DNA from: an uncultured Acidobacteriota bacterium
Lineage (GTDB): Bacteria; Acidobacteriota; Thermoanaerobaculia; Thermoanaerobaculales; Sulfomarinibacteraceae
Direction: 5' to 3'
NCBI GenBank assembly: GCA_963814875.1
Contig: CAWFFJ010000015.1
Location: 138,908-202,907 of the forward strand
Length of the DNA stretch: 64,000 nucleotides
The translations under genes and the position numbers were made by a program. Under the pieces are notes generated by a model. The model worked only from the letters and a program-made list of their open reading frames with translations, was not told where the DNA came from and searched no databases. Below are positions 9,923 through 30,878 of the stretch, piece by piece; positions within the stretch are counted from its first letter, which is position 1; each line of letters starts with the position of its first letter.

Positions 9923-10132
9923 CACCACCAAGACACCAAGACACCAAGCAGGCGCTGAAGGTGATCGATGGCTTCTGGGTCGGCGTAGTCCGACGTTGAC
10001 GGGGCTGCGTGAAGCCACAGAGGGCTCTTGATGGAGACTCCGTCATGCGAGAAGCAGCTCCTGAGAGGGAGTATCGGTTGGCGAACTGCCAGCATCTTTC
10101 GGACTCCCTTGGTGTCTTGGTGTCTTGGTGGT
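9923..10132. repeat. octamer-arm inverted-repeat element, copy 1 (no intact cargo)
   Basis: Left arm 9923-9948 is CACCACCAAGACACCAAGACACCAAG. Right arm 10108-10132 is CTTGGTGTCTTGGTGTCTTGGTGGT, its reverse complement. The 159-bp non-coding interior begins GGCGCTGAAGGTGA..ATGGCTT, like the interior next to 12865. Confidence 0.8.
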
Positions 10133-10163: not shown

Positions 10164-12785
<2,622 letters not shown>

Positions 12786-12807
<22 letters not shown>

Positions 12808-12865
12808 GACACAGGGGAGCACAGAGCCCCCGCCCACCCGAAGTGAAACCACCAAGACACCAAGG
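12786..12865. repeat. left composite terminus of the cassette
   Basis: GAACAAACCACAGAGGCACTGAGACACAGGGGAGCACAGAG (8-nt periodic CACNGAGN), then CCCCCGCCCACCCGAAGTGAA, then ACCACCAAGACACCAAGG. It contains the stop codon (12805-12807) of the XdhD-like gene. Confidence 0.85.
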
Positions 12866-12988
12866 CGCTGCAAGTGAATGGCTTGAGGCGGTGGGGTGAC
12901 AAGAACGAATCGGGCATGTAGGGAGCGGCTGGCACTAGCCCGGACCCCCAACCCCAGCTGCCTCTGGTAGCATCGCCGCGGAGAGCCA

Positions 12989-13642
12989 GTGTCGCTCGCG
13001 AAAACCCTCACCCCAGAGAAGGCGCTGATCTTCAGGATCACACATCAGAGGAACGTCCCGTGGATTCTTGAGCATGGGCTCCACTGCCGGAGCTCGAACA
13101 TCGTGGACTCGGACTTCGTGAGCATTGGCAATCAAGACCTGATCGACAAGCGCGCGTCTCGTCTCGTTCCGGCGCACCCGGGGGGCGAGCTCGGCGACTA
13201 TATCCCCTTCTATTTCACGCCATATTCGCCGATGCTCCTCAACATCAGGACGGGCCGCGGCAACGTGAAAAGGCGGCGCAACGAGGAGATCGCCATCTTG
13301 GTGTCATCGCTCGCCCGCCTGTCGGAGCACGGGGTCAGGTACTTGATCACAGATAGCCACGCCTTCCTGGCGACAGCGCAGTTTTCTACAAACCTCGATG
13401 ACCTCAGAGAGTGGCTCCCATGGGAGCACCTCCAGGAACGCAACTTCAAGAGGGACCCAGACGACCCGACAGCGTTCGAGCGCTACCAAGCGGAGGCCTT
13501 GGCGCACAAGGAAGTGCCTACTGAGGCGCTGTTGGGCGTCGTTTGTTACACTGAGGGCGTAAGATCCAACCTAGAAGCCGAGCGGGTGAAACGCCGGGTT
13601 GACCTCAAGGTCCTGACGAAGCCAGATTGGTATTTCCCATGA
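12989..13642 (+). CDS. darT: DarT ssDNA ADP-ribosyltransferase toxin (DUF4433)
   Basis: 217 aa. N-terminal IFRITHQRNVPWILEHGL and C-terminal ERYQAEALAHKEVP match the DUF4433 pattern (xHITHxxNLxxIL... / QAEfLV with a catalytic Glu). GTG start after GGAGAG. The stop overlaps the darG ATG (ATGA at 13639-13642). Confidence 0.85.
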   Translation: MSLAKTLTPEKALIFRITHQRNVPWILEHGLHCRSSNIVDSDFVSIGNQDLIDKRASRLVPAHPGGELGDYIPFYFTPYSPMLLNIRTGRGNVKRRRNEEIAILVSSLARLSEHGVRYLITDSHAFLATAQFSTNLDDLREWLPWEHLQERNFKRDPDDPTAFERYQAEALAHKEVPTEALLGVVCYTEGVRSNLEAERVKRRVDLKVLTKPDWYFP

Positions 13643-14712
13643 TGCGATTCACCTCGGGCAACATGCTCCAAGCCGACGTCGAGGCGCTGGTCAACACAGT
13701 TAACACCGTCGGCGTGATGGGTAAGGGCATCGCCTTGATGTTCAAGGAGGCGTACCCGGAGAACTTCAAGTCCTACGTCGCGGCGTACAAGCGTGGGGAG
13801 ATTCGAACCGGCCACATGTTCGTCACCGAATTGCCCGCACGCCTTGAGGGCGGTCCGCGGTGGATCATCAACTTCCCAACCAAGGAGCATTGGCGGGGCC
13901 GGTCGAGAATGGAGTGGATCACCAAAGGACTCGAGGACCTCCGCCGTGTCATTCGCGAGAGGGGGATCTCCTCGATCGCAGTACCGCCCCTCGGGTGCGG
14001 CGCGGGAGGCCTCAACTGGCCGGATGTTCGGGCGGCGATCGTGGAGGCACTCGGCGATCTCAAGGCAGTCAACGTGGTCGTCTACGAGCCGACCTCGCAG
14101 TACCAGAACGTCACCAAACGGCGTGGCCTGCAGAAGCTCACGCCGGCCCGGGCGATGGTGGCCGAGTTGGTGCGCAGCTACTCCGTGCTCGGCATCGAGT
14201 GTTCGGTCCTCGAAATCCAGAAGATGGCCTGGTTCCTTGAGCGCAGCATCGAGAAACTGGACCTCCCCAACCCTCTCAACCTCTGCTTCGAGGCCAATAG
14301 GTACGGGCCGTACGCCGACCGGCTCCGCCACCTACTCGACGACCTTGACGGTAGCTACCTGCACTGTGAGCGCCGCCTGGCGGACGCGCGCCCCGCCGAC
14401 GCCATTTGGTTCGACGATGCCAAGCGGGACCTCGTCGCCGCCTACCTCGGCTCCGGCGACGCCAAGCAATACCAGGACGCGCTCGACAGGACGACCGCAC
14501 TGATCGACGGCTTCCAGTCGCCTCTCGGTCTCGAGCTGCTGGCGACGGTGGATTGGCTCGTCGCCCGCGAGGGGGTTGAGCCCGAGCTTCAGGCTGTTCG
14601 CGACGCGCTTGCGCACTGGCCAGGCGGCAGATCCGCCGGCGAGCGCAAGCTGCGCCTCTTCGACGACCGCATGCTCGGTTTGGCCCTCGAGCGCCTTTCC
14701 TCAACAACCTAG
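13639..14712 (+). CDS. darG: DarG macrodomain antitoxin (ADP-ribosyl-DNA glycohydrolase) with C-terminal DarT-binding region
   Basis: GNMLQADVEALVNTVNTVGVMGKGIALMFKEAYPENF...SIAVPPLGCGAGGL is a Macro-domain signature. A roughly 200-aa helical C-terminal domain follows. It is translationally coupled to darT. Confidence 0.85.
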   Translation: MMRFTSGNMLQADVEALVNTVNTVGVMGKGIALMFKEAYPENFKSYVAAYKRGEIRTGHMFVTELPARLEGGPRWIINFPTKEHWRGRSRMEWITKGLEDLRRVIRERGISSIAVPPLGCGAGGLNWPDVRAAIVEALGDLKAVNVVVYEPTSQYQNVTKRRGLQKLTPARAMVAELVRSYSVLGIECSVLEIQKMAWFLERSIEKLDLPNPLNLCFEANRYGPYADRLRHLLDDLDGSYLHCERRLADARPADAIWFDDAKRDLVAAYLGSGDAKQYQDALDRTTALIDGFQSPLGLELLATVDWLVAREGVEPELQAVRDALAHWPGGRSAGERKLRLFDDRMLGLALERLSSTT

Positions 14713-14786
14713 GTACCCACAGTTAGGGCAGCACACCTTCGTTCTCCGCCCTCGAGCGCACACAACGCCGGCTGTCGCCTTAGCCC

Positions 14787-14815
14787 TTGCCAACATCGTG
14801 TGGACATCGTATATT
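14787..14815 (+). promoter_or_regulatory. candidate sigma70-type promoter for the TIR-NLR operon
   Basis: TTGCCA (14787-14792), then a 17-nt spacer, then TATATT (14810-14815), about 30 nt upstream of ATG 14846. The spacer carries a direct repeat ACATCGT-GTGG-ACATCGT. It sits in an AT-richer 133-bp gap after darG. Confidence 0.35.
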
Positions 14816-14845
14816 TCGTTAGAAGGCTCGAGTCGGAGGGTCGTC

Positions 14846-15337
14846 ATGGAAACCAAGATCCGCTTCTTCGCTTCCTACGCTGCCAAGGATGGGGCCTTGG
14901 CCGAACGGCTTCTGGAACCGCTTCGCTCGCACCTCGCGGCGTCGAAGCGCTTCGCAGTCACGGTGTGGGACTTCCATCGGCTGTTGGTGGGCGAGCGGTG
15001 GCACGTGAGGATCCTGGCTGAGCTTGACCGGAGCGATTTCGGTCTGCTGCTGCTCAGCCCGGCGTTCTTGACGTCGAGGTACATCGACGAGCACGAGCTG
15101 CCCCGTCTCGTCGGAAAAGGTGAGAAGCCTGTGATCCCGGTCTGTCTGAGGCTCATCGACCTCGAACGCCAGAGCATGAAAGGGCTCGAGCAGTATCAAC
15201 TCTTCCGGCTCGGCGGCCGCACCTTCTCCCAGCTGACGACGGCTGCTCAGCGGGAGCGCTTCGTCTTCGAGCTTTACCGTCAGATCGAGGACCGCGTCGC
15301 TTCCCTGTGGGCACATGGCAGCGGTGAGGCGCCATGA
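14846..15337 (+). CDS. stand-alone TIR-domain protein (163 aa)
   Basis: ATG 14846 follows GGAGGG. KIRFFASYAAKDGALAERL...DFGLLLLSPAFLTSRYIDEHELPRL fits the bacterial TIR pattern (F-x-SY..D ... S..Y..S.(W/Y)x..E). The stop overlaps the next ATG (ATGA at 15334-15337). Confidence 0.8.
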   Translation: METKIRFFASYAAKDGALAERLLEPLRSHLAASKRFAVTVWDFHRLLVGERWHVRILAELDRSDFGLLLLSPAFLTSRYIDEHELPRLVGKGEKPVIPVCLRLIDLERQSMKGLEQYQLFRLGGRTFSQLTTAAQRERFVFELYRQIEDRVASLWAHGSGEAP

Positions 15338-18300
15338 TCGCTGCACGTCGTCGCCTGGGTGGCGGAGCATTGCGAGCAGTGCTGCCGCGGATTGAGGAGC
15401 AGTTAGGCTCGGCCGACTGCGCACGCCTACACCAGTGCTTGGATGCCCAGGACGGCGATCGCCTGCAGATGGCGCGGCTCCTTGAAAGGCTGTTCCCTGG
15501 GAAGTCCACACAGGAAGGGCAGGCCTCGCTGCGGAGCTTCCGGCAAGCATTCAACCGAGCTGCTGAAAATGCGGGGCTCGCCGTTTCCTTCACCGCCGAC
15601 ACGAAGAAACGCACACCGGCGGCCGAGCGTTGGTGCTGGTTCGAGGGTGAGGGGCTCGATGAGGCGACCATGGCGGAACGGTCCGCCGCCGAGGCGGAGC
15701 CCACGGACCCCGAGCGAATGGTCCGGCCACAAGCGAAGAAGCTCGACGCTCGTCAGGTTGTGCGCTGGGTCGTACTGGCCGCACCGCCTGACGGGGACGC
15801 AGCACGCCCGTTCATTGTCGAGCTGGAAAAGTCCCTTCGCGGCTCAAGCCGGTATGACTTCGTTGGCTGGGCGCCGTGGAACGTTCTGGCCGGCGAGAGG
15901 CCCGAGGAGGAGAGGGCGCGCCAGCTCGAGAAGGCCGACCTCGTCCTGGCCATGGTCAGCGCAGGCTTCGCGGCCGACCCTGCCGTCGTTGAGCTGTCGG
16001 ACGACGCCGTCGAGGCTGGGAAGATCGTCGTCCCGGCCCTCCTCAGCCAAGTCGACCCGAAGCGTCAGCGACTGGGCAGAATCGGCGATATCGAGCTATT
16101 CCCAAAGAACGGCAAGTCGTGTGCCGGCTGCTCCTTGCACCAGCGGGGGCAGCTGGCACACGAGCTGTTCACGGTAATCGTCGAGCGAATGGAGAAGGCA
16201 TGCGATGAGGGCGAGAAGCATCGAATCAAGGCGGAGACGGCCCTCGAGCGAGCTTTCCGGGACGATCTCGACGACTCGGGCTTTCCGGCTGAGCCGGTCC
16301 CGAGCCGCGGTCGCCTGACCAAGATCCGGCTGCTGCGAGCCGAACGTGATGAGCGCACAACGGGCCGCATCGACGGCTTCGACGCGGTCGACTACCTGGC
16401 ACGGTGGGCCGCCGACCCCTCCTCGCCCCCGTTCTGCGCTCTGCTCGGCGAGGTCGGCATCGGCAAGACCACCGCCTGCCAGCTCCTCACGCTTCGCTTG
16501 CTTGCAGCACGGAAGGAGGATCCCGGACTCCCGCTCCCGATCTACCTCGATCTGCGGCGCTACTCCTGGGACGGGAAGGTCGACTTCACCCTCGAGCAGA
16601 TCCTCGATGCCGTCCTGAGCCGGAGCTGGCGCGCAGGCTTCGGCGCGCCTCTCGGCGCAGAGGGCGTGATACGCCTCGTCACCGAGGCGGGGGCACTGGC
16701 GATCTTCGACGGGCTCGACGAGGTCCTGGTGCATATGCAGCCGAAGCTCGGCCAGGACTTCATCCGCGAGCTGTGGCGCCTCAGGCCGCCCGTGCGCCGC
16801 CGGGCCAAGCTCACCGACAGGGCGAGAGGAGGCAAGCTGCTGCTTTCATGCCGGTCGCACTACTTCCGCACCGTGCTCGAGCAGAACGCACTGCTCCTCG
16901 GCGAGGAGCGCGAGGGTCTCAGGGGCGAGGACTACGACGCCCTGGAGCTGCTGCCCTTCGACGCCCAACAGATCGAGAGCTACCTGCGGCGAAACCTCCC
17001 CGAAGTCGACGTCGAGCGGGCGCTCGAGCTGATCAGGTCGGTCCACAACCTGCCAGAGCTCGCCGAGCGACCTTTCACCCTGTCGCTGATCGGTGAGCAC
17101 CTGCCCGAGCTGGAGGCGAAGCGGGTCGCCGGCGGCACAGCCCGAGGCATCGACCTCTACCAGGCGGTGGTGGATCGCTGGCTCCAGCGCGACCACGGCA
17201 AGCACCAGCTCAACCCGAGCCACAAGCGGCTGCTCATGGAGAACCTCTCCGCCGAGCTGTGGCGCGCCGGCCGACGCGAGTGGGGCTGTGAGCAGCTCGA
17301 GGCATGGCTTGACGGGTTTCTGTTCGCCAACCCGATCATCGAGGGCGCCTATCGGACCATTGAGCGCGAGGTGCTCAAAGAGGACCTCCGCACCGCCACC
17401 TTTGTCGTGCGCACCGACGACGACACCTTCCGCTTTGCGCACTCCTCATTACAGGAGTACTTCCTCGCATCGAGGCTCCACCGGGCGCTCCGCGAGAATC
17501 ACCCCGAGGCGTGGGCGATCCCCATGCCCTCGGAAGAGACCCTCGGCTTCCTGCTTGAGCTGCTCGAGTCGCGCCCGGAGGACCGCGAGGCGTGCGAAGG
17601 AACGCTCTGCGACATCCTGGCCGTATACCGCCCGCAGGCAAGCGAGCTCGCCTTCAAAGTGTGGCTTCTCGCCCACAGCAACGGTAGGCCCCTTCCCCGA
17701 CCAAAGTGTTTCGACCTCCACGGGGCGGATTTGGCCGGTTGGCACATCTCCGCGCCGCCAGGCCGGTTGGTCGATCTGACGGGTGCCGATCTCCGGAACG
17801 CAAACTTGCGACGCGCCGTACTCGAGCGCGTCACCCTCAACGACGTTGACCTGCGAGGGAGCGATGCCGTCGCGGCCGAGCTTCACGAGGTCGAGCTGCA
17901 TGGAGCGCTGGTATCTGACGCCGACCTCACCGCCACTCTCTGGCGCCGGTCGCGGGTGGTGGATATCGACTTTTCCAAGACGCGTCTCGAGGGCTCGCGC
18001 ATGATCCGGTCGACTCTGAAGAGGGTCACCTTGCCAGGCGCGCGGGGGGAGGTGCTCGCGAGCTGCATGGTCGACGGGGCGGAGCACTCGTCCCTGGACT
18101 CTCGAGGCGGCGCGACGCTGGGGCTCTTCACCGGACATTCAAGTAACGTCGCATCCTGCGCGGTCGCGCCCGACGGCCGCCGCGGGCTCTCCGCGGGTGA
18201 CGACGGCACCGTCAGGCTCTGGGACCTCGACTCCGGCGAGTGCCTGCGCGTGCTCGAGGGACATCGAGCCGGGGTCTCGGCGTGCGCGGTCGCCCCCGAC

Positions 18301-19446
18301 GGCCGCCGCGCGCTCTCCGCGGGTGACGACGGCACCGTCAGGCTCTGGGACCTCGACTCCGACGAGTGCCTGCGCGTGCTCGAGGGGCATCGAGGCCGGG
18401 TTTTGGGGTGCGCGGTCGCCCCCGACGGCCGCCGCGCGCTCTCCGCGGGTGACGACGGCACCGTCAGGCTCTGGGACCTCGACTCCGACGAGTGCCTGCG
18501 CGTGCTCGAGGGACATCGAGGCGGGGTCTCGGCGTGCGCGGTCACCCCCGACGGCCGCCGCGCGCTCTCCGCGGGTCGTGACGACGGCACCGTCAGGCTC
18601 TGGGACCTCGACTCCGGCGAGTGCCTGCGCGTGCTCGAGGGACATCGAGCCGGGGTCTGGGCGTGCGCGGTCGCCCCCGACGGCCACCGCGCGCTCTCCG
18701 CGGGTGGTGGCGACTTCACCGTCAGGCTCTGGGACCTCGACTCCGGCGAGTGCCTGCGCGTGCTCGAGGGGCACGGGCACACCTCTTGGGGGTGCGCGGT
18801 CGCCCCCGACGGCCGCCGCGCGCTCTCCGCGGTTGACGACGGCACCGTCAGGCTCTGGGACCTCGACTCCGGCGAGTGCCTGCGCGTGCTCGGGGGCCAT
18901 CGACACTGGGTTAGGGGGTGCGCGGTCGCGCCCGACGGCCGCCGCGCGCTCTCCGCGGGTCGTGACGACGGCACCGTCAGGCTCTGGGACCTCGACTCCG
19001 GCGAGTGCCTGCGCGTGCTCGAGGGCCATCGACGCTGGGCCTGGGCGTGCGCGGTCGCGCCCGACGGCCGCCGTGCGCTCTCCGCGGGTGACGACGGCAC
19101 CGTCAGGCTCTGGGACCTCGACTCCGGCGAGTGCCTACACGTGCTCGAGGGCCATCGAGGCGAGGTCTGGGCGTGCGCGGTCGCGCCCGACGGCCGCCGC
19201 GCGCTCTCCGCGGGTGACGACGGCACCGTCAGGCTCTGGGACCTCGACTCCGGCCTCGAGACGCTGACCATGGCAACCCTGCCTGGCGGCGAGGCCGCGG
19301 CCCTCGACCCGATTTCAGGCACATGCCGGCGTGCCTCGCCCGGCGCCTGGCGGTGGCTCGGATGGCTCGCCCGCGACCCCGAGACCTGCAAAATCCGCCG
19401 CTACCCCGCCGAGAGCTTTGGCCCGCTGCCCGGGTCTGAAGACTGA
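15334..19446 (+). CDS. NLR-like STAND NTPase: unassigned N-module / TIR-like domain / NACHT / pentapeptide repeats / 9 WD40 repeats (1370 aa)
   Basis: A TIR-like alpha/beta block spans aa 142-242 (VVRWVVLAAPPDG...ADLVLAMVSAGFAADPAVVEL; 15757-16059). Walker A GEVGIGKTT is at 16447-16473 and Walker B LAIFDGLDEV at 16696-16725. A pentapeptide-like block covers aa 793-900 (ADLRNANLRRAVLERVTLNDVDLRGSD...; 17710-18033). Nine GH...TVRLWD WD40 units span 18133-19255. Confidence 0.85.
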   Translation: MIAARRRLGGGALRAVLPRIEEQLGSADCARLHQCLDAQDGDRLQMARLLERLFPGKSTQEGQASLRSFRQAFNRAAENAGLAVSFTADTKKRTPAAERWCWFEGEGLDEATMAERSAAEAEPTDPERMVRPQAKKLDARQVVRWVVLAAPPDGDAARPFIVELEKSLRGSSRYDFVGWAPWNVLAGERPEEERARQLEKADLVLAMVSAGFAADPAVVELSDDAVEAGKIVVPALLSQVDPKRQRLGRIGDIELFPKNGKSCAGCSLHQRGQLAHELFTVIVERMEKACDEGEKHRIKAETALERAFRDDLDDSGFPAEPVPSRGRLTKIRLLRAERDERTTGRIDGFDAVDYLARWAADPSSPPFCALLGEVGIGKTTACQLLTLRLLAARKEDPGLPLPIYLDLRRYSWDGKVDFTLEQILDAVLSRSWRAGFGAPLGAEGVIRLVTEAGALAIFDGLDEVLVHMQPKLGQDFIRELWRLRPPVRRRAKLTDRARGGKLLLSCRSHYFRTVLEQNALLLGEEREGLRGEDYDALELLPFDAQQIESYLRRNLPEVDVERALELIRSVHNLPELAERPFTLSLIGEHLPELEAKRVAGGTARGIDLYQAVVDRWLQRDHGKHQLNPSHKRLLMENLSAELWRAGRREWGCEQLEAWLDGFLFANPIIEGAYRTIEREVLKEDLRTATFVVRTDDDTFRFAHSSLQEYFLASRLHRALRENHPEAWAIPMPSEETLGFLLELLESRPEDREACEGTLCDILAVYRPQASELAFKVWLLAHSNGRPLPRPKCFDLHGADLAGWHISAPPGRLVDLTGADLRNANLRRAVLERVTLNDVDLRGSDAVAAELHEVELHGALVSDADLTATLWRRSRVVDIDFSKTRLEGSRMIRSTLKRVTLPGARGEVLASCMVDGAEHSSLDSRGGATLGLFTGHSSNVASCAVAPDGRRGLSAGDDGTVRLWDLDSGECLRVLEGHRAGVSACAVAPDGRRALSAGDDGTVRLWDLDSDECLRVLEGHRGRVLGCAVAPDGRRALSAGDDGTVRLWDLDSDECLRVLEGHRGGVSACAVTPDGRRALSAGRDDGTVRLWDLDSGECLRVLEGHRAGVWACAVAPDGHRALSAGGGDFTVRLWDLDSGECLRVLEGHGHTSWGCAVAPDGRRALSAVDDGTVRLWDLDSGECLRVLGGHRHWVRGCAVAPDGRRALSAGRDDGTVRLWDLDSGECLRVLEGHRRWAWACAVAPDGRRALSAGDDGTVRLWDLDSGECLHVLEGHRGEVWACAVAPDGRRALSAGDDGTVRLWDLDSGLETLTMATLPGGEAAALDPISGTCRRASPGAWRWLGWLARDPETCKIRRYPAESFGPLPGSED
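18133..19255 (+). repeat. nine tandem 126/129-bp coding repeats (WD40 units) inside the NLR gene
   Basis: Units start at 18133, 18259, 18385, 18511, 18640, 18769, 18895, 19024 and 19150. Between units 2 and 3 the last ~99 nt (GTGCGCGGTCGCCCCCGACGGCCGCCGCGCGCTCTCCGCGGGTGACGACGGCACCGTCAGGCTCTGGGACCTCGACTCC...) are identical, and the other units differ only slightly there. Differences cluster in the first ~27 nt of each unit. Confidence 0.9.
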
Positions 19447-19538
19447 GGCAAACTGGTCGTTGCCGCGGCTGTCCTTCAAGGCCCGGATCGGCTTCCGACC
19501 TTTGGCTTTCTATGGTCTCGCCCTGGGCGGGTGGGCGG

Positions 19539-19632
19539 CTTGGTGTCTTGGTGTCTTGGTGGTTCACTCTTGGGCGGGTGGGGGCTTTCAAACCCTCTGT
19601 GCGTCTCTGTGCCTCAGTGTCTCTGTGGTTTG
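19539..19632. repeat. right composite terminus of the cassette
   Basis: CTTGGTGTCTTGGTGTCTTGGTGGTTCACTCTTGGGCGGGTGGGGGCTTTCAAACCCTCTGTGCGTCTCTGTGCCTCAGTGTCTCTGTGGTTTG is the reverse complement of the left terminus modules. It ends 13 nt before the hydantoinase stop codon (19645-19647). Confidence 0.85.
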
Positions 19633-19644
19633 TCCTTCGTCCCG

Positions 19645-21000
19645 CTACGCCTTCGCCAGCAGCCGGCCGCGGGGGTGGTCGCGGTCGGTCAGAGCGCCGT
19701 CGCGGACCACCTCGACGCCGCCGAGCAGGACGTGGCGGATCGCGAGCCGGGTGGTCGCCGTGGGGAACGGAGGGTAGGCGTCCGCGAGGGTCGGCCGCAC
19801 CGGACGCGCCGGTCCCGCCGGGTCGACCACCACCAGGTCGGCGTCGGCCCCGGGGCGGATGACCCCCTTACGTTCGGCGAGACCCAGTACCCGCGCCGGG
19901 GCGGCCGAGAGCATCGAAGCGAAACGCGGCAGCGGCCACTTGTGGCGCTCGACGAGCAGCTCCCAGGCCAGGGGCAGCAGGGCGCCGACACCGGGCAGCC
20001 CACTCGGGACCGCGCGCAGGTCGCCGGCGAAAACATCCTTGTCGGCGCGGCGGAACGGGCAGTGGTCGGAGGCGAGCAGGTCGACCGCCCCCTCGGCAAC
20101 CACCGCCTCGAGGGCGGCGCGGACCGCCGACGGACGCAGGGGTGGGGTGCACAGCCGGCGGTGACCGCCATAGCCGGCGAGCGCGCGCTCGTCGAGCAGC
20201 AGGTAGTGCGGCGCGGTCTCCGAGGTCACCGCGGCGGAAGCCCGGGAGGCGGCGATCCGGCCTGCTCCGTAGGCGGTCGAGACGTGGACCACATGGGTCG
20301 CACAGCCGGTGCGCTCGGCGAGGTCGAGCAGCTTGGAGATCGCCGCGATCTCCGCCCGCTCCGGGCGCAGGCGGGCGTGGTTCTGCGGGTTCGAGAGGTC
20401 GAGGTCTGAGGCATCGACCATGTCGAGGATCTCCTGGTCCTCACAGTGGACGAGCACCGTGGCGCCGAGATCGGCGAAGCGCAGCATCGCCCCCTCGAGC
20501 CGGTCCCAGGGCGTGAACAGGCCGGCCTCGCGGTAGGTCGTGTAGAGCTTGAAGGTGGCGAAGCCGTCCGCAACCAGGGCCTCGATCTCATCCCAGTCCC
20601 AACTCTCCCCGGTCGGCGTCAGGTGCAGGGCGAGGTCGGCGTGGAGGCGCCCCCGCGCCTTGGCGACCATCCTCCCGACCGCCGCGGCCAGGCTCTCCCC
20701 CGGGCGCTGGGTGACGAAGGAGGCGATCGTGGTGACACCTTCGCGCACCGCGGCCTCGGTGCCGGAGGCGAAGTCGTCGGCGATCGGAACGCCTGCGACC
20801 TCGTCGTCGAGGTGGACGTGGAGGTCGATCACGCCGGGCAGCACCACGCACCCGGAGGCGTCGATCACGGCCTCGTCCGGGCGGCGCTCGCACCGGCCGA
20901 CCTCCATGATGTGCGTGCCCTCGACCCGCACGTCGGTCGAGGCTTCGCCGTCAGGAGTGACCACCAGCCCGCCCGCGACCAGCACCCCGCCTTCGCTCAT
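19645..21000 (-). CDS. cyclic amidohydrolase (D-hydantoinase / dihydropyrimidinase, HyuA-like)
   Basis: Start moved to ATG 21000 (MSEGGVLVAGGLVVTPDG...). The GVIDLHVHLDD metal-binding motif and 451-aa length are typical of hydantoinases. Confidence 0.85.
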   Translation of the reverse strand: MSEGGVLVAGGLVVTPDGEASTDVRVEGTHIMEVGRCERRPDEAVIDASGCVVLPGVIDLHVHLDDEVAGVPIADDFASGTEAAVREGVTTIASFVTQRPGESLAAAVGRMVAKARGRLHADLALHLTPTGESWDWDEIEALVADGFATFKLYTTYREAGLFTPWDRLEGAMLRFADLGATVLVHCEDQEILDMVDASDLDLSNPQNHARLRPERAEIAAISKLLDLAERTGCATHVVHVSTAYGAGRIAASRASAAVTSETAPHYLLLDERALAGYGGHRRLCTPPLRPSAVRAALEAVVAEGAVDLLASDHCPFRRADKDVFAGDLRAVPSGLPGVGALLPLAWELLVERHKWPLPRFASMLSAAPARVLGLAERKGVIRPGADADLVVVDPAGPARPVRPTLADAYPPFPTATTRLAIRHVLLGGVEVVRDGALTDRDHPRGRLLAKA

Positions 21001-21027
21001 CGCACCACCCCCACCCTCCCGATGCCA

Positions 21028-21119
21028 AACCACAAAGGCACGAAGACACAAAGAAATCCACAACGATTCTGGTGCCGCAGGCTCATGTCCTCTCTGTGTG
21101 TTTTTGTGTCTTCGTGGTG
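21028..21119. repeat. octamer-arm inverted-repeat element, copy 3 (diverged, minimal hairpin)
   Basis: AACCACAAAGGCACGAAGACACAAAGAAATCCACAA (21028-21063) pairs with TCTCTGTGTGTTTTTGTGTCTTCGTGGTG (21091-119) around a 27-nt loop. It has the same CACNAAGN periodicity and is preceded by the C-rich CACCACCCCCACCCTCCC (21003-21020), as in the other copies. It lies between the hydantoinase start and the ssnA-like stop. Confidence 0.6.
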
Positions 21120-26747: not shown

Positions 26748-27953
26748 GCCTCGAGATCGCCCACGACCTGCTCGAGTCCTGCGCCCGCCACGAGACCGAG
26801 ATCGTGGCCTTCCTGCGCGACCTGATCGCGATCCCCGCCGAGAGCGGCGCCGAGGGTGATCGCTGTGCCCGGGTGCTCGCCGAGTACCAGAGACTCGGCT
26901 TCGACGAGGCGCGCTTCGACGGGCTCGGCAACGTGGTCGGCCGGATCGGCTCCGGTCCGGTCACGGTGCTGCTGGACGGTCACGTCGACTGCGTCGGGCG
27001 TCGGCGACCCGACCTCGTGGTCGCATGACCCGTTCCGCGGCAAGCTCGAGGCTGGCGAGGTCTGGGGCCGAGGCGCGGTCGACGAGCTGCCCGCGGTGGC
27101 GACGATGCCGTGGGCGGCGCGGCTCGCGGCGGACCGCGGCCTGCTCGACGGCGTCACCCTCTACGTGGTCGCCTCGGTGATGGAGGAGGCCTTCGACGGC
27201 TTCCCGCTGCAGTGGCTGATCGAGCGCGAGGGCGTCCACCCTGACGCGGTCGTGCTCGGCGAGCCGACCGACCTCGCCGTCTACCGCGGCCACCGCGGCC
27301 GGATGGGGATCGAGGTCGTGGCCCGGGGCGTCTCCGCCCACGCTGCGCACTGCGACCTCGGCGTCAACGCGGTCACCAAGATCGCGCCGATCGTGCTCGA
27401 CGTCGATGCCCTCCATCGGCGGCTGCCCGGCCACGACGTGCTCGGCAAGGGCTCGGTGACGGTGAGCTTCATCGAGTGCACCACCGCCTCGCTCAATGCG
27501 GTGCCGGACCGCGCCCGGATCGTGCTCGACCGTCGACTCACGGCCGGCGAGACCCCCGAGTCCGCCCTCGCCGAGATCCGCGCTCTGTCCCACATCGGCG
27601 ACGCCGAGGTCCGCACTCTGACCTCCCGCGGGCGCTCGTGGCGCGGCGTCGACGTCGAGCTCGAGGAGGCCTACCCGACCTGGCTGCTCGATGCCGACCA
27701 TCCTCTGGTCGAGGGCGTCGCCGAGGCCGCGCAGGCAGTGCTCGGCGGGGCGCCACGGCTCGGGGTGTGGACCTTCTCGACCAACGGCGTCGCCACCATG
27801 GGCCGGCTCGGGATCCCGACCGTGGGCTTTGCGCCCGGGCGGGAGGAGCTCGCCCACACCACCGAGGAGCACGTCGCGGTCGCCGATCTGCTGAGAGCGA
27901 CCGCGGTCTACGCCCTGATCCCCGCCGCCCTCGCCAGGAGGTTGGGGGGATGA
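26744..27953 (+). CDS. ygeY: YgeY-like M20 family metallohydrolase, interrupted by an apparent +1 frameshift at the G3 run 26996-26998
   Basis: The GTG 26744 start overlaps the upstream stop. ...VLLDGHVDCVG (frame A) joins VGDPTSWSHDPFRGKLEAGEVWGRGAVD... (track ORF 26856..27953) if one G of GGG is removed. The stop (27951-27953) overlaps the ATG of the GxxExxY gene. Confidence 0.8.
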
Positions 27954-28372
27954 ACCACCAAGACACCAAGACACCAAGACGGAAGCCAGAGCCGGTCTCG
28001 TCTGCCATTGACGAGGTCGCTCGTCAGGTGGTCGATGCTGCATACACGGTTCATCACGAGCTCGGACCCGGTCTGCTCGAGTCGATCTACGAGGCGTGTC
28101 TTGCGCGAGAGCTCGAGCTGCGGGGCATTCCGGTCGAGCGGCAGGCGTCGATTCCGGTGGTGTACAAGGGTGTCCGGCTTCCGTCCTCGCTTCGGATCGA
28201 CCTGCTCGTCGGTGGCTGCGTCGTCGTCGAGGTGAAGGCCGTCGATGCCCTCGTCGGGGTTCACACGGCGCAGATTCTCACATACCTCAAGCTGTCAGGG
28301 CTTCGAGTCGGTTTTCTTGTCAACTTCAATGTCGGTGTCATCAAGGACGGAATCCGCAGGATCGCGCTGTGA
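27950..28372 (+). CDS. GxxExxY protein (PD-(D/E)XK nuclease superfamily)
   Basis: GPGLLESIYEACLARELELRG contains the G-x-x-E-x-x-Y motif. RIDLLVGGCVVVEVKAV gives the D...E-x-K nuclease motif. The first ~10 codons (MNHQDTKTPR) are encoded by the repeat arm. Confidence 0.85.
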   Translation: MNHQDTKTPRRKPEPVSSAIDEVARQVVDAAYTVHHELGPGLLESIYEACLARELELRGIPVERQASIPVVYKGVRLPSSLRIDLLVGGCVVVEVKAVDALVGVHTAQILTYLKLSGLRVGFLVNFNVGVIKDGIRRIAL

Positions 28373-30663: not shown

Positions 30664-30878
30664 ACCACCAAGACACAAAGACACCAAGACACCAAGAGGA
30701 ATCACAGAGCCGGCCTTCACGACCGATCTTCGAGGTGGAGCTCCAATGGGGCATTGCGAGCGGTCCTCCGCCGCGGCAGACCTCTGTTACCTGTGGAAAA
30801 GACCGGCTGCAATGTTCCGGGTCTAGCCCTGGCTGCCTCGGGTGGGCGGGGGGCTTGGTGTCTTGGTGTCTTGGTGGT
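30664..30878. repeat. octamer-arm inverted-repeat element, copy 5 (no intact cargo)
   Basis: The arms are 30664-30698 (ACCACCAAGACACAAAGACACCAAGACACCAAGAGG) and 30854-30878 (CTTGGTGTCTTGGTGTCTTGGTGGT). The 155-bp interior ends ...GGTCTAGCCCTGGCTGCCTCGGGTGGGCGGGGGG, similar to the sequence just inside the right cassette terminus at 19514-19538. Confidence 0.8.

Follow-up and report, generated by a model that had tools for sequence, protein, structure and literature searches.

A nested hairpin as a candidate insertion hotspot for a DarTG and TIR-NLR defense islet in an acidobacterial purine-catabolism cluster

The intervening sequence (IVS) in the 23S rRNA of Coxiella consists of a 28-bp terminal stem around an open reading frame (ORF) for S23p, a four-helix-bundle protein, and is cut by RNase III; the origin of IVSs is unexplained, and a transposon origin has been proposed (PMC4990558). 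Here, we analyzed a hairpin element of comparable plan in a 64,000-nt stretch of DNA from an uncultured Acidobacteriota bacterium (Sulfomarinibacteraceae; assembly GCA_963814875.1, contig CAWFFJ010000015.1, positions 138,908 to 202,907 of the forward strand), which is called the window throughout. There, a modular inverted repeat frames a block of four defense genes at the junction of an xdhD-like gene and a hydantoinase gene. Our preferred reading, to which we assign a probability of about 0.58, is that the repeat is a resident nested hairpin whose loop serves as a hotspot for insertion or exchange and now holds a two-module defense islet.

The locus and its relatives resemble the IVSs of Leptospira and Coxiella in that pairing of complementary termini gives a stem of ~25-30 bp, which closes a loop with or without a small ORF, and in that the insertion is tolerated within a transcription unit. 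Small ORFs of this kind are a PDDEXK_3 gene in the small window element E2 and putative, weakly 23S_rRNA_IVP-like genes in L130, L120, and L118. In contrast to IVSs, these hairpins occupy the spacers between protein-coding genes, or the ends of such genes, rather than rRNA helices (no rRNA was found in the window), and their arms are built of 8-nt CACNNAGN units. Furthermore, the copy described here has nested arms and a 6.6-kb multi-gene loop, and RNase III cutting, which is known for IVSs, is only predicted for it.

Short, multi-copy, hairpin-forming repeats placed tightly in the intergenic spacers of operons are also known as the Correia/NEMIS, ERIC, and REP/BIME/REPIN families. Co-transcription and RNase III cleavage are known for Correia elements, REPs are hotspots for the insertion of insertion sequences, and families of this type show TA or other target duplications or have an associated RAYT transposase. 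To our knowledge, these families are confined to a genus or species. In contrast, an identical 23-mer of the present family occurs across phyla and its loops may carry genes. Neither a target-site duplication (TSD) nor a RAYT-like gene was seen in the window, the RAYT (Y1 HUH) transposase domain being absent from the window ORFs scanned.

Defense islands and hotspots flanked by core genes likewise hold variable defense or toxin-antitoxin genes at one conserved junction, with atypical GC content and no mobility gene. The junction contents compared here were DarTG plus a TIR-NLR pair in the window, HicAB in L138, and other genes in L118 and L121. Unlike in ordinary defense hotspots, the hotspot would be the loop of a palindromic repeat, and a 95-nt inverted repeat encloses the islet. 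Units flanked by miniature inverted-repeat transposable elements (MITEs), such as integron mobilization units, also have cargo bracketed by MITE-like repeats with no transposase inside. Integron mobilization units contain two complete MITE copies, each with both terminal inverted repeats, whereas a single element is present here with its arms split, the forward (F) arm on the left and the reverse (R) arm on the right.

The inverted repeat framing the defense block

Taken as its reverse complement, the segment 19539-19635 aligns with the left arm (12786-12865), giving a modular inverted repeat of ~95 nt with 78% column identity in the aligned part. In the repeat search, two arm pairs from this region, 12777-12826/19595-19644 (50 nt, 80% complementarity) and 12810-12864/19547-19601 (55 nt, 73% complementarity), were among the longest inverted repeats of the window. 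Two-strand cofolding of the left and right arms yielded a nearly unbroken duplex of ~95 bp at -170.7 kcal/mol, compared with a mean of -104.2 ± 5.3 and a best value of -130.1 kcal/mol when the right arm was shuffled 200 times. A chance match of the arms was ruled out by this comparison, and the module-for-module alignment of the termini noticed in a first-pass annotation of the same letters was borne out. The inverted repeat is real and is a member of a hairpin family. Its modules are listed below, where L120 is the closest relative, P0242 is a protein of a strain variant of L120, and E1 to E3 are small family members in the window.

12786-12826, + strand: outer left arm (F), 8-nt CACAGAG-type units, (CACAGAGN)n, reading GAACAAACCACAGAGGCACTGAGACACAGGGGAGCACAGAG; orthologous copy in L120
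12827-12839, + strand: C-rich box CCCCCGCCCACCC, partner of the G-rich box at 19572-19584; conserved in L120 and the P0242 read-through tail
12848-12865, + strand: inner left arm (F) ACCACCAAGACACCAAGG, ACCAC(CAAGACAC)n, of the CACCAAG type as in E1, E2, and E3
12866-12899, + strand: left interior of the presumed resident element (…TGAATGGCTTGAGG…GGTGAC), common to L120 and like the E1 interior; homology to L120 stops here
19512-19538, + strand: right interior of the presumed resident element, containing a G-rich box; 19520-19563 (44 nt) matches the right end of E3 at 89% identity
19539-19563, + strand: inner right arm (R) CTTGGTGTCTTGGTGTCTTGGTGGT, mirror of the inner left arm
19572-19584, + strand: G-rich box GGGCGGGTGGGGG, pairing with 12827-12839
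19595-19635, + strand: outer right arm (R) CTCTGTGCGTCTCTGTGCCTCAGTGTCTCTGTGGTTTGTCC, mirror of the outer left arm

In our preferred reading, the two termini would be the separated arms of one nested hairpin, in which an outer CACAGAG-type stem and a GC-rich box surround an inner CACCAAG-type stem. Sequence common to other family members reaches inward to ~12899 on the left and ~19512 on the right; therefore, the cargo-specific DNA spans ~12900-19511. The module scan found only F modules on the left side and only R modules on the right, which rules out a composite transposon or MITE-flanked unit with two complete copies. The non-periodic pair of C-box and G-box was found nowhere else in the window.

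The left flank GAGAAGCC and the right flank TTCGTCCC have nothing in common, and no TSD was seen at the small elements E1 to E4 either. Similarly, no transposase or integrase domain was found in the 45 large ORFs scanned over 64 kb. Both results agree with the first-pass annotation, which had seen no integrase, transposase, or clear TSD. As for integron gene cassettes, the window ORFs contained no integrase domain, and no Rfam or attC-type match was obtained.

The same junction in relatives

Relatives were found through a search with the XdhD-like protein, and their contigs were then compared at the xdhD-like/hydantoinase junction. This evidence covers the left arm of the closest lineage; a metagenome scan with the hydantoinase gave one close relative, L125. 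In L120 (96% XdhD identity), the same composite left arm lies at the same site, with 86% identity over 12786-12899 and one unit more or fewer, compared with 92% identity in the last 300 nt of the xdhD-like gene. Past ~12900, L120 showed no similarity to the window and carries instead a degraded minus-strand gene homologous to a 132-aa four-helix-bundle ORF of L130. This L130 ORF matched 23S_rRNA_IVP weakly (E 0.0038, below the cut-off), and the remnants in L120 and L118 are homologous to it by eye, without a Pfam match. In P0242, which falls in the same protein cluster as L120, the tail DKPQRHRGTEEHRAPAHPVMNRQDTKTPRDFA translates the outer arm, the C-box, and the inner arm. The L118 junction (89%) is without defense genes: a displaced xdhD-like end is followed by a degenerate outer arm, a four-helix-bundle remnant, and the hydantoinase stop ~170 nt on. 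In L121 and L122 (79%), the stop is followed after 10 nt by a compound F arm and then by four other genes; no R arm was found ahead of the hydantoinase, nor anywhere within 3.4 kb of the F arm in L121. L138 (78%) shows a degenerate arm and then a HicAB-like pair with other small genes.

Two local rearrangements were also observed in L118. A 2.3-kb segment with an S8 peptidase gene (L118 12590-14960) is inserted within the last xdhD-like codons, the original 3' end (…FDSRWRNALPLERP…) being displaced downstream, and positions 12810-12890 contain a 43-nt tandem duplication.

Comparison of these contigs places the left arm as ancestral and older than the cargo, and by the same comparison the content of the site differs among relatives. 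As the composite left arm stands at the same site in relatives with other content, the arms are probably not transposon ends that brought the cargo. That the hairpin moves the defense genes, in other words that the unit bounded by the inverted repeat is mobile, was not shown. The first-pass annotation had considered the block to be inserted in the cluster and had proposed a search for an empty junction in relatives. The insertion is supported by a GC content different from that of the flanks and by the L118 junction, which lacks the cassette, whereas an empty site without termini was not found among these relatives: the composite left arm is retained in L120 and P0242, and an arm or what is left of one in L121, L118, and L138.

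We propose that the element has occupied the convergent xdhD-like/hydantoinase junction since before the lineages split and that the xdhD-like gene takes its last codons and its stop codon from it. The loop would be a hotspot for accessory DNA; at this site, relatives carry a HicAB pair, a four-helix-bundle (23S-IVS-protein-like) gene or its pseudogene, or yet other genes. Long palindromes are fragile sites cleaved by SbcCD, and the cargo may have entered by break repair or by illegitimate or homologous exchange at the palindrome. When transcribed from the xdhD side, the arms could pair like rRNA processing or IVS stems; by analogy, such pairing would yield an RNase III site that parts the cargo transcript from the flanking mRNAs. 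The locus would exemplify a palindromic intergenic repeat as the landing site of a defense islet within an otherwise conserved catabolic operon, with a 95-nt framing repeat that could be mistaken for transposon ends.

Several observations weigh against this proposal. The L120 contig stops 540 nt past the xdhD-like gene, and its counterpart on the hydantoinase side, L125, breaks off within that gene; L120 could still carry defense genes further in. No junction signature of cargo entry was seen at ~12900 or ~19511. At the site of E1, comparison of the window with L120 (1309-1447) indicated that the whole hairpin including its arms is replaced, with junctions and flanks kept: the arm units are CCAAG in the window and CAAAG in L120, and the loops of 157 and 81 nt are unalignable (z 2.0). 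Such a hairpin swap between 96% relatives indicates that family members turn over as units. Moreover, a separate 6,658-bp contig (L129; ENA assembly ERZ25039495, contig_13974), 99.5% identical to 12863-19529, holds the four defense genes alone and ends exactly at the inner arms (12863/19529). These boundaries may be an assembly break at repeats, or L129 could represent another allele or a form of the cassette that was excised or inverted. In this contig, the NLR gene is split in two by indels in its WD40 repeats.

A different account, which we consider doubtful, is that family members exchange their interiors, and sometimes their arms, at the conserved arms, so that the islet would have come in as another member's interior and taken the place of a four-helix-bundle cargo. 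The change of arm unit type and loop at the E1 site and the L129 ends at the inner arms fit such an exchange, as do arm sequences identical over at least 23 nt across phyla, PDDEXK_3 and SRA-HNH genes in the loops at other loci, and the position of the L130 four-helix-bundle gene directly upstream of a related DarTG. However, no donor element with this cargo was found, no arms were detected around the DarTG relatives of L130 and L139, and arms of 17-40 nt are short for RecA-dependent exchange. In addition, homology to L120 runs 34 nt inside the inner arm, which places any exchange point away from the arm itself.

We regard as improbable that the whole 6.8-kb unit bounded by the inverted repeat is a present or past non-autonomous transposon, that is, a cargo-carrying MITE mobilized in trans with the arms as transposase-binding ends. 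Sharp-ended terminal inverted repeats are common to many copies, some members encode a PD-(D/E)XK nuclease, and a family so numerous and so widely distributed must have spread by some mechanism. Nevertheless, the left arm shared with L120 and P0242, which have other cargo, the lack of a TSD and of a transposase in 64 kb, the single occurrence of the four-gene unit, and the separable modules of the cargo argue against it. On the same grounds, the idea of the first-pass annotation that the repeats form the termini of the cassette itself, in a unit that is or once was mobile, is not supported.

It is most improbable that the termini are two unrelated half-elements, left over from separate hairpins beside an ordinary defense island and matching only through a shared family consensus. 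Orphan arms do exist (the F arm of L121 and several single arms at other loci), but the arms here match module for module in mirrored order including the unique C-box/G-box pair, with F modules only on the left and R modules only on the right, and all other pairs in the window also run F then R.

The hairpin family in the window and across genomes

The family is recognized by arms of 8-nt CACNNAGN units and by sharp ACCAC...GTGGT ends. A scan for three consecutive CACNNAGN units detected arms only at 9.9-30.9 kb of the window, always F then R. The four small elements fold as hairpins with stems of 25-30 bp (z -3.9 to -6.9) and are listed here without strand; the framing repeat has the same F...R architecture, which upholds the earlier view that its termini are of the same kind.

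9924-10132: E1, 25-bp stem and 157-nt loop, z -6.9, in the spacer of xdh and the xdhD-like gene; L119, L120, and L121 have the orthologous site
21029-21118: E4, CACAAAG/CACGAAG units; orthologue in L125
27954-28416: E2, loop carrying a PDDEXK_3 (GxxExxY-type) ORF at 27950-28372, 8.8e-42
30664-30878: E3, small family member

All five hairpin elements of the window lie in a 21-kb cluster for selenium-dependent purine/pyrimidine catabolism, where they occupy nearly every intergenic spacer, and none was found in the remaining 43 kb. In E2, the PDDEXK_3 ORF starts with an ATG that shares bases with the TGA ending the M20 peptidase gene upstream (ATGA), and its first ten codons (MNHQDTKTPR) are the forward arm itself; arm-encoded N-termini were also seen in other phyla (L025, L033, L064, and L096).

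The exact 23-mer core CACCAAGACACCAAGACACCAAG (CACCAAGACACCAAGACACCAAGACACCAAG-type) occurred at at least 117 genome loci, compared with ~0.02 expected by chance as derived from 4^23 and the 596 Gb searched. Among the matches listed, these loci span Acidobacteriota, Alphaproteobacteria, Chloroflexia, Cyanobacteria, Verrucomicrobia, Planctomycetota, Nitrospirae, and Spirochaetes. They include 80 F/R arm pairs, whose loops are mostly 0-160 nt and in six cases 280-733 nt; ORFs in the latter include PDDEXK_3-type proteins and an SRA-HNH nuclease. Beside unpaired arms, the ORFs surveyed were for the most part common host genes of the flanks and gave no information on large cargo. Together with pairs from the window and from later-fetched loci, 95 arm pairs were compared. 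Pairing was 88-99% inward from the AC of ACCAC and ~40% outside, indicating that the end of the element is sharply defined. Viral contigs gave only 7 matches to the 23-mer, and phage carriage is therefore not the main reservoir.

Family loops appear to carry small gene families known from 23S rRNA IVSs. No Rfam match at gathering thresholds was obtained in the window, and literature searches (GxxExxY, IVS protein families, and arm sequences), whose coverage was incomplete, found no description of such repeats, in keeping with the first-pass remark that this type of terminus was undescribed. The family is apparently very widespread and undescribed and forms the unusual part of the case. Speculatively, and with little confidence, the 8-nt-periodic ACCAC...GTGGT hairpins could be a cross-phylum class of IVS-like cassette holders. 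Loops or whole hairpins would be exchanged at fixed docking sites by a dedicated mechanism, maybe through the often-encoded PD-(D/E)XK (GxxExxY) and Avd-like four-helix-bundle proteins, and pairing of the arms would keep the transcript of the cargo insulated from the operon of the host. Should the hairpins turn out to be exchangeable cassette sites or to act as RNA-processing insulators, they would inform the long-standing question of the nature of IVSs and of the spread of S23p/Avd-like and GxxExxY genes. If they are cassette holders, the 6.6-kb DarTG plus TIR-NLR islet would be the first such element with a multi-gene immune cargo.

Further observations concern the repeats themselves. A viral or prophage contig (L137; IMG/VR UViG 2519899571_000001) contains two complete family hairpins with similar loops at 399-568 and 1294-1461, which fill the spacers on either side of a scaffold-like gene adjoining a capsid-like gene. 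In metagenome-assembled genomes (MAGs) of Calditrichaceae and Planctomycetota (L011, L023, and L042), CACCAAGA forms long one-sided tandem arrays rather than hairpins, of up to ~12 units and in some cases at contig ends. Stop codons are absent from all six frames of most arm units (CACCAAGA, CACAGAGA, CACAAAGA, CACGAAGA, and the complements of these).

Cargo genes and the flanking catabolic cluster

Only four genes, all on the + strand, lie between the arms, encoding DarT, DarG, a TIR protein, and an NNH6-NACHT-WD40 protein. The immune-type domains first noticed in their translations were recovered by PADLOC and Pfam. GC content is 0.59-0.69 from 12750 to ~18000, compared with 0.73-0.76 in the flanks. 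The features are as follows.

12900-19511, + strand: cargo-specific DNA, putative two-module defense islet, GC 0.59-0.69 up to ~18000
12989-13642, + strand: DarT, single-stranded DNA thymidine ADP-ribosyltransferase toxin; PADLOC DarT 7.5e-63, Pfam PF14487 2.6e-49 over 1-201/201
13639-14712, + strand: DarG, macrodomain antitoxin; PADLOC DarG 2.6e-119 over 1-327/329, Pfam Macro 9.4e-22
14787-14815, + strand: sigma-70-like promoter match TTGCCA-17-TATATT upstream of the TIR gene; 10/12 positions, a consensus match only
14846-15337, + strand: TIR-domain protein; Pfam TIR_2 8.1e-11 to 2.7e-10, PADLOC ThsB-like 5.7e-10
15334-19446, + strand: STAND/NLR-type protein of 1370 aa with NNH6, a weak internal TIR, NACHT, and then WD40 repeats

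DarG overlaps DarT and has 357 aa as called in P0121, the longest ORF beginning at 13627. The pair shows the DarTG arrangement of a DarT with PF14487 and an adjoining DarG that combines an N-terminal macrodomain with a C-terminal DarT-binding part. The TIR protein has 163 aa as called in L129, its longest ORF beginning at 14576, and its stop overlaps the NLR start. Domain matches in the NLR were NNH6 (3.5e-25 to 3.8e-25), the NACHT core PF05729 (1.2e-7, 32.2 bits compared with a cut-off of 26.7), WD40 (1.4e-98), and a weak internal TIR_2 (7e-4); a weak Pentapeptide match is on record for the L129 copy. No curated PADLOC model matched the NLR except HEAT-ARM_XIII, which was driven by the repeats. 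An NLR-like system is indicated by the NACHT core, a C-terminal repeat sensor, and a TIR effector coupled through the overlapping stop and start. The gene content therefore fits DarTG and TIR/NACHT (bacterial NLR-like) defense systems, for which an anti-phage role is predicted here. The genes are of ordinary, known kinds, and the proteins are unremarkable apart from their combination.

Composition and the occurrence of its parts in other contexts mark the cargo as foreign and modular. The block 12961-14696, which contains DarTG and 28 nt upstream, has 77.7% nucleotide identity in L130, where similarity is limited to that span and DarTG lies between the four-helix-bundle gene and an MmeI-like restriction-modification gene, without TIR-NLR. 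In L139, a DarTG with 73% DarG identity stands beside other defense genes. As DarTG recurs without TIR-NLR in L130 and TIR-NLR has its own promoter-like site, the cargo is a composite of at least two separable modules, namely DarTG with a conserved upstream region and the translationally coupled TIR/NNH6-NACHT-WD40 pair. A DarG search over 5.8 billion protein clusters found the four-gene unit only in the source population: 100% identity was limited to P0121 and L129, the next match had 84% identity in another context, and no second copy of the unit was found at another locus.

Within the NLR gene, the WD40 region at 18150-19340 consists of 8-10 tandem units of 126/129 nt with 90-98% nucleotide identity and ~75% GC. 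Such identity between repeats suggests that the presumed sensor domain undergoes concerted evolution or a rapid turnover of its repeats.

The flanking genes are as follows.

10164-12807, + strand: XdhD-like gene (selenium-dependent xanthine dehydrogenase type), left flank; Pfam Fer2_2/Ald_Xan_dh_C/MoCoBD_1/2
19645-21063, - strand: hydantoinase/amidohydrolase gene, right flank, convergent with the xdhD-like gene; Pfam Amidohydro_1; orthologues in L118, L121, and L125

Both flanks belong to one cluster, as first suggested from the letters and supported by the Pfam domains of the flanking genes: it comprises xdh subunits, the xdhD-like gene, hydantoinase/two amidohydrolases, a PreT/PreA-like gene, and ygeX-Y-W-like (PALP, M20, OTCase-like) genes. 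The longest XdhD-like ORF and the public gene call P0001 (911 aa) run through the left arm to 12899. By tblastn with P0002 and P0003, the homologous reading passes from frame 3 to frame 1 at 12236-12259 and ends at 12795-12801, so that the read-through ORF 10164-12899 was rejected as the real gene end, being a frameshift artefact. The native stop, TGA 12805-12807, lies within a CACTGAGA unit of the outer left arm; thus, the gene end at 12807 given by the first-pass annotation stands despite the frameshift. The frameshift is probably an indel error of the long-read assembly, and it may alternatively mark a real pseudogene. The XdhD-like protein of a related MAG (P0241) is likewise truncated near the frameshift position. 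The arm units in which host genes end also vary, the rare CACTGAGA unit being used here and a CCATAGAGG variant in L120, and P0242 continues 29 codons further.

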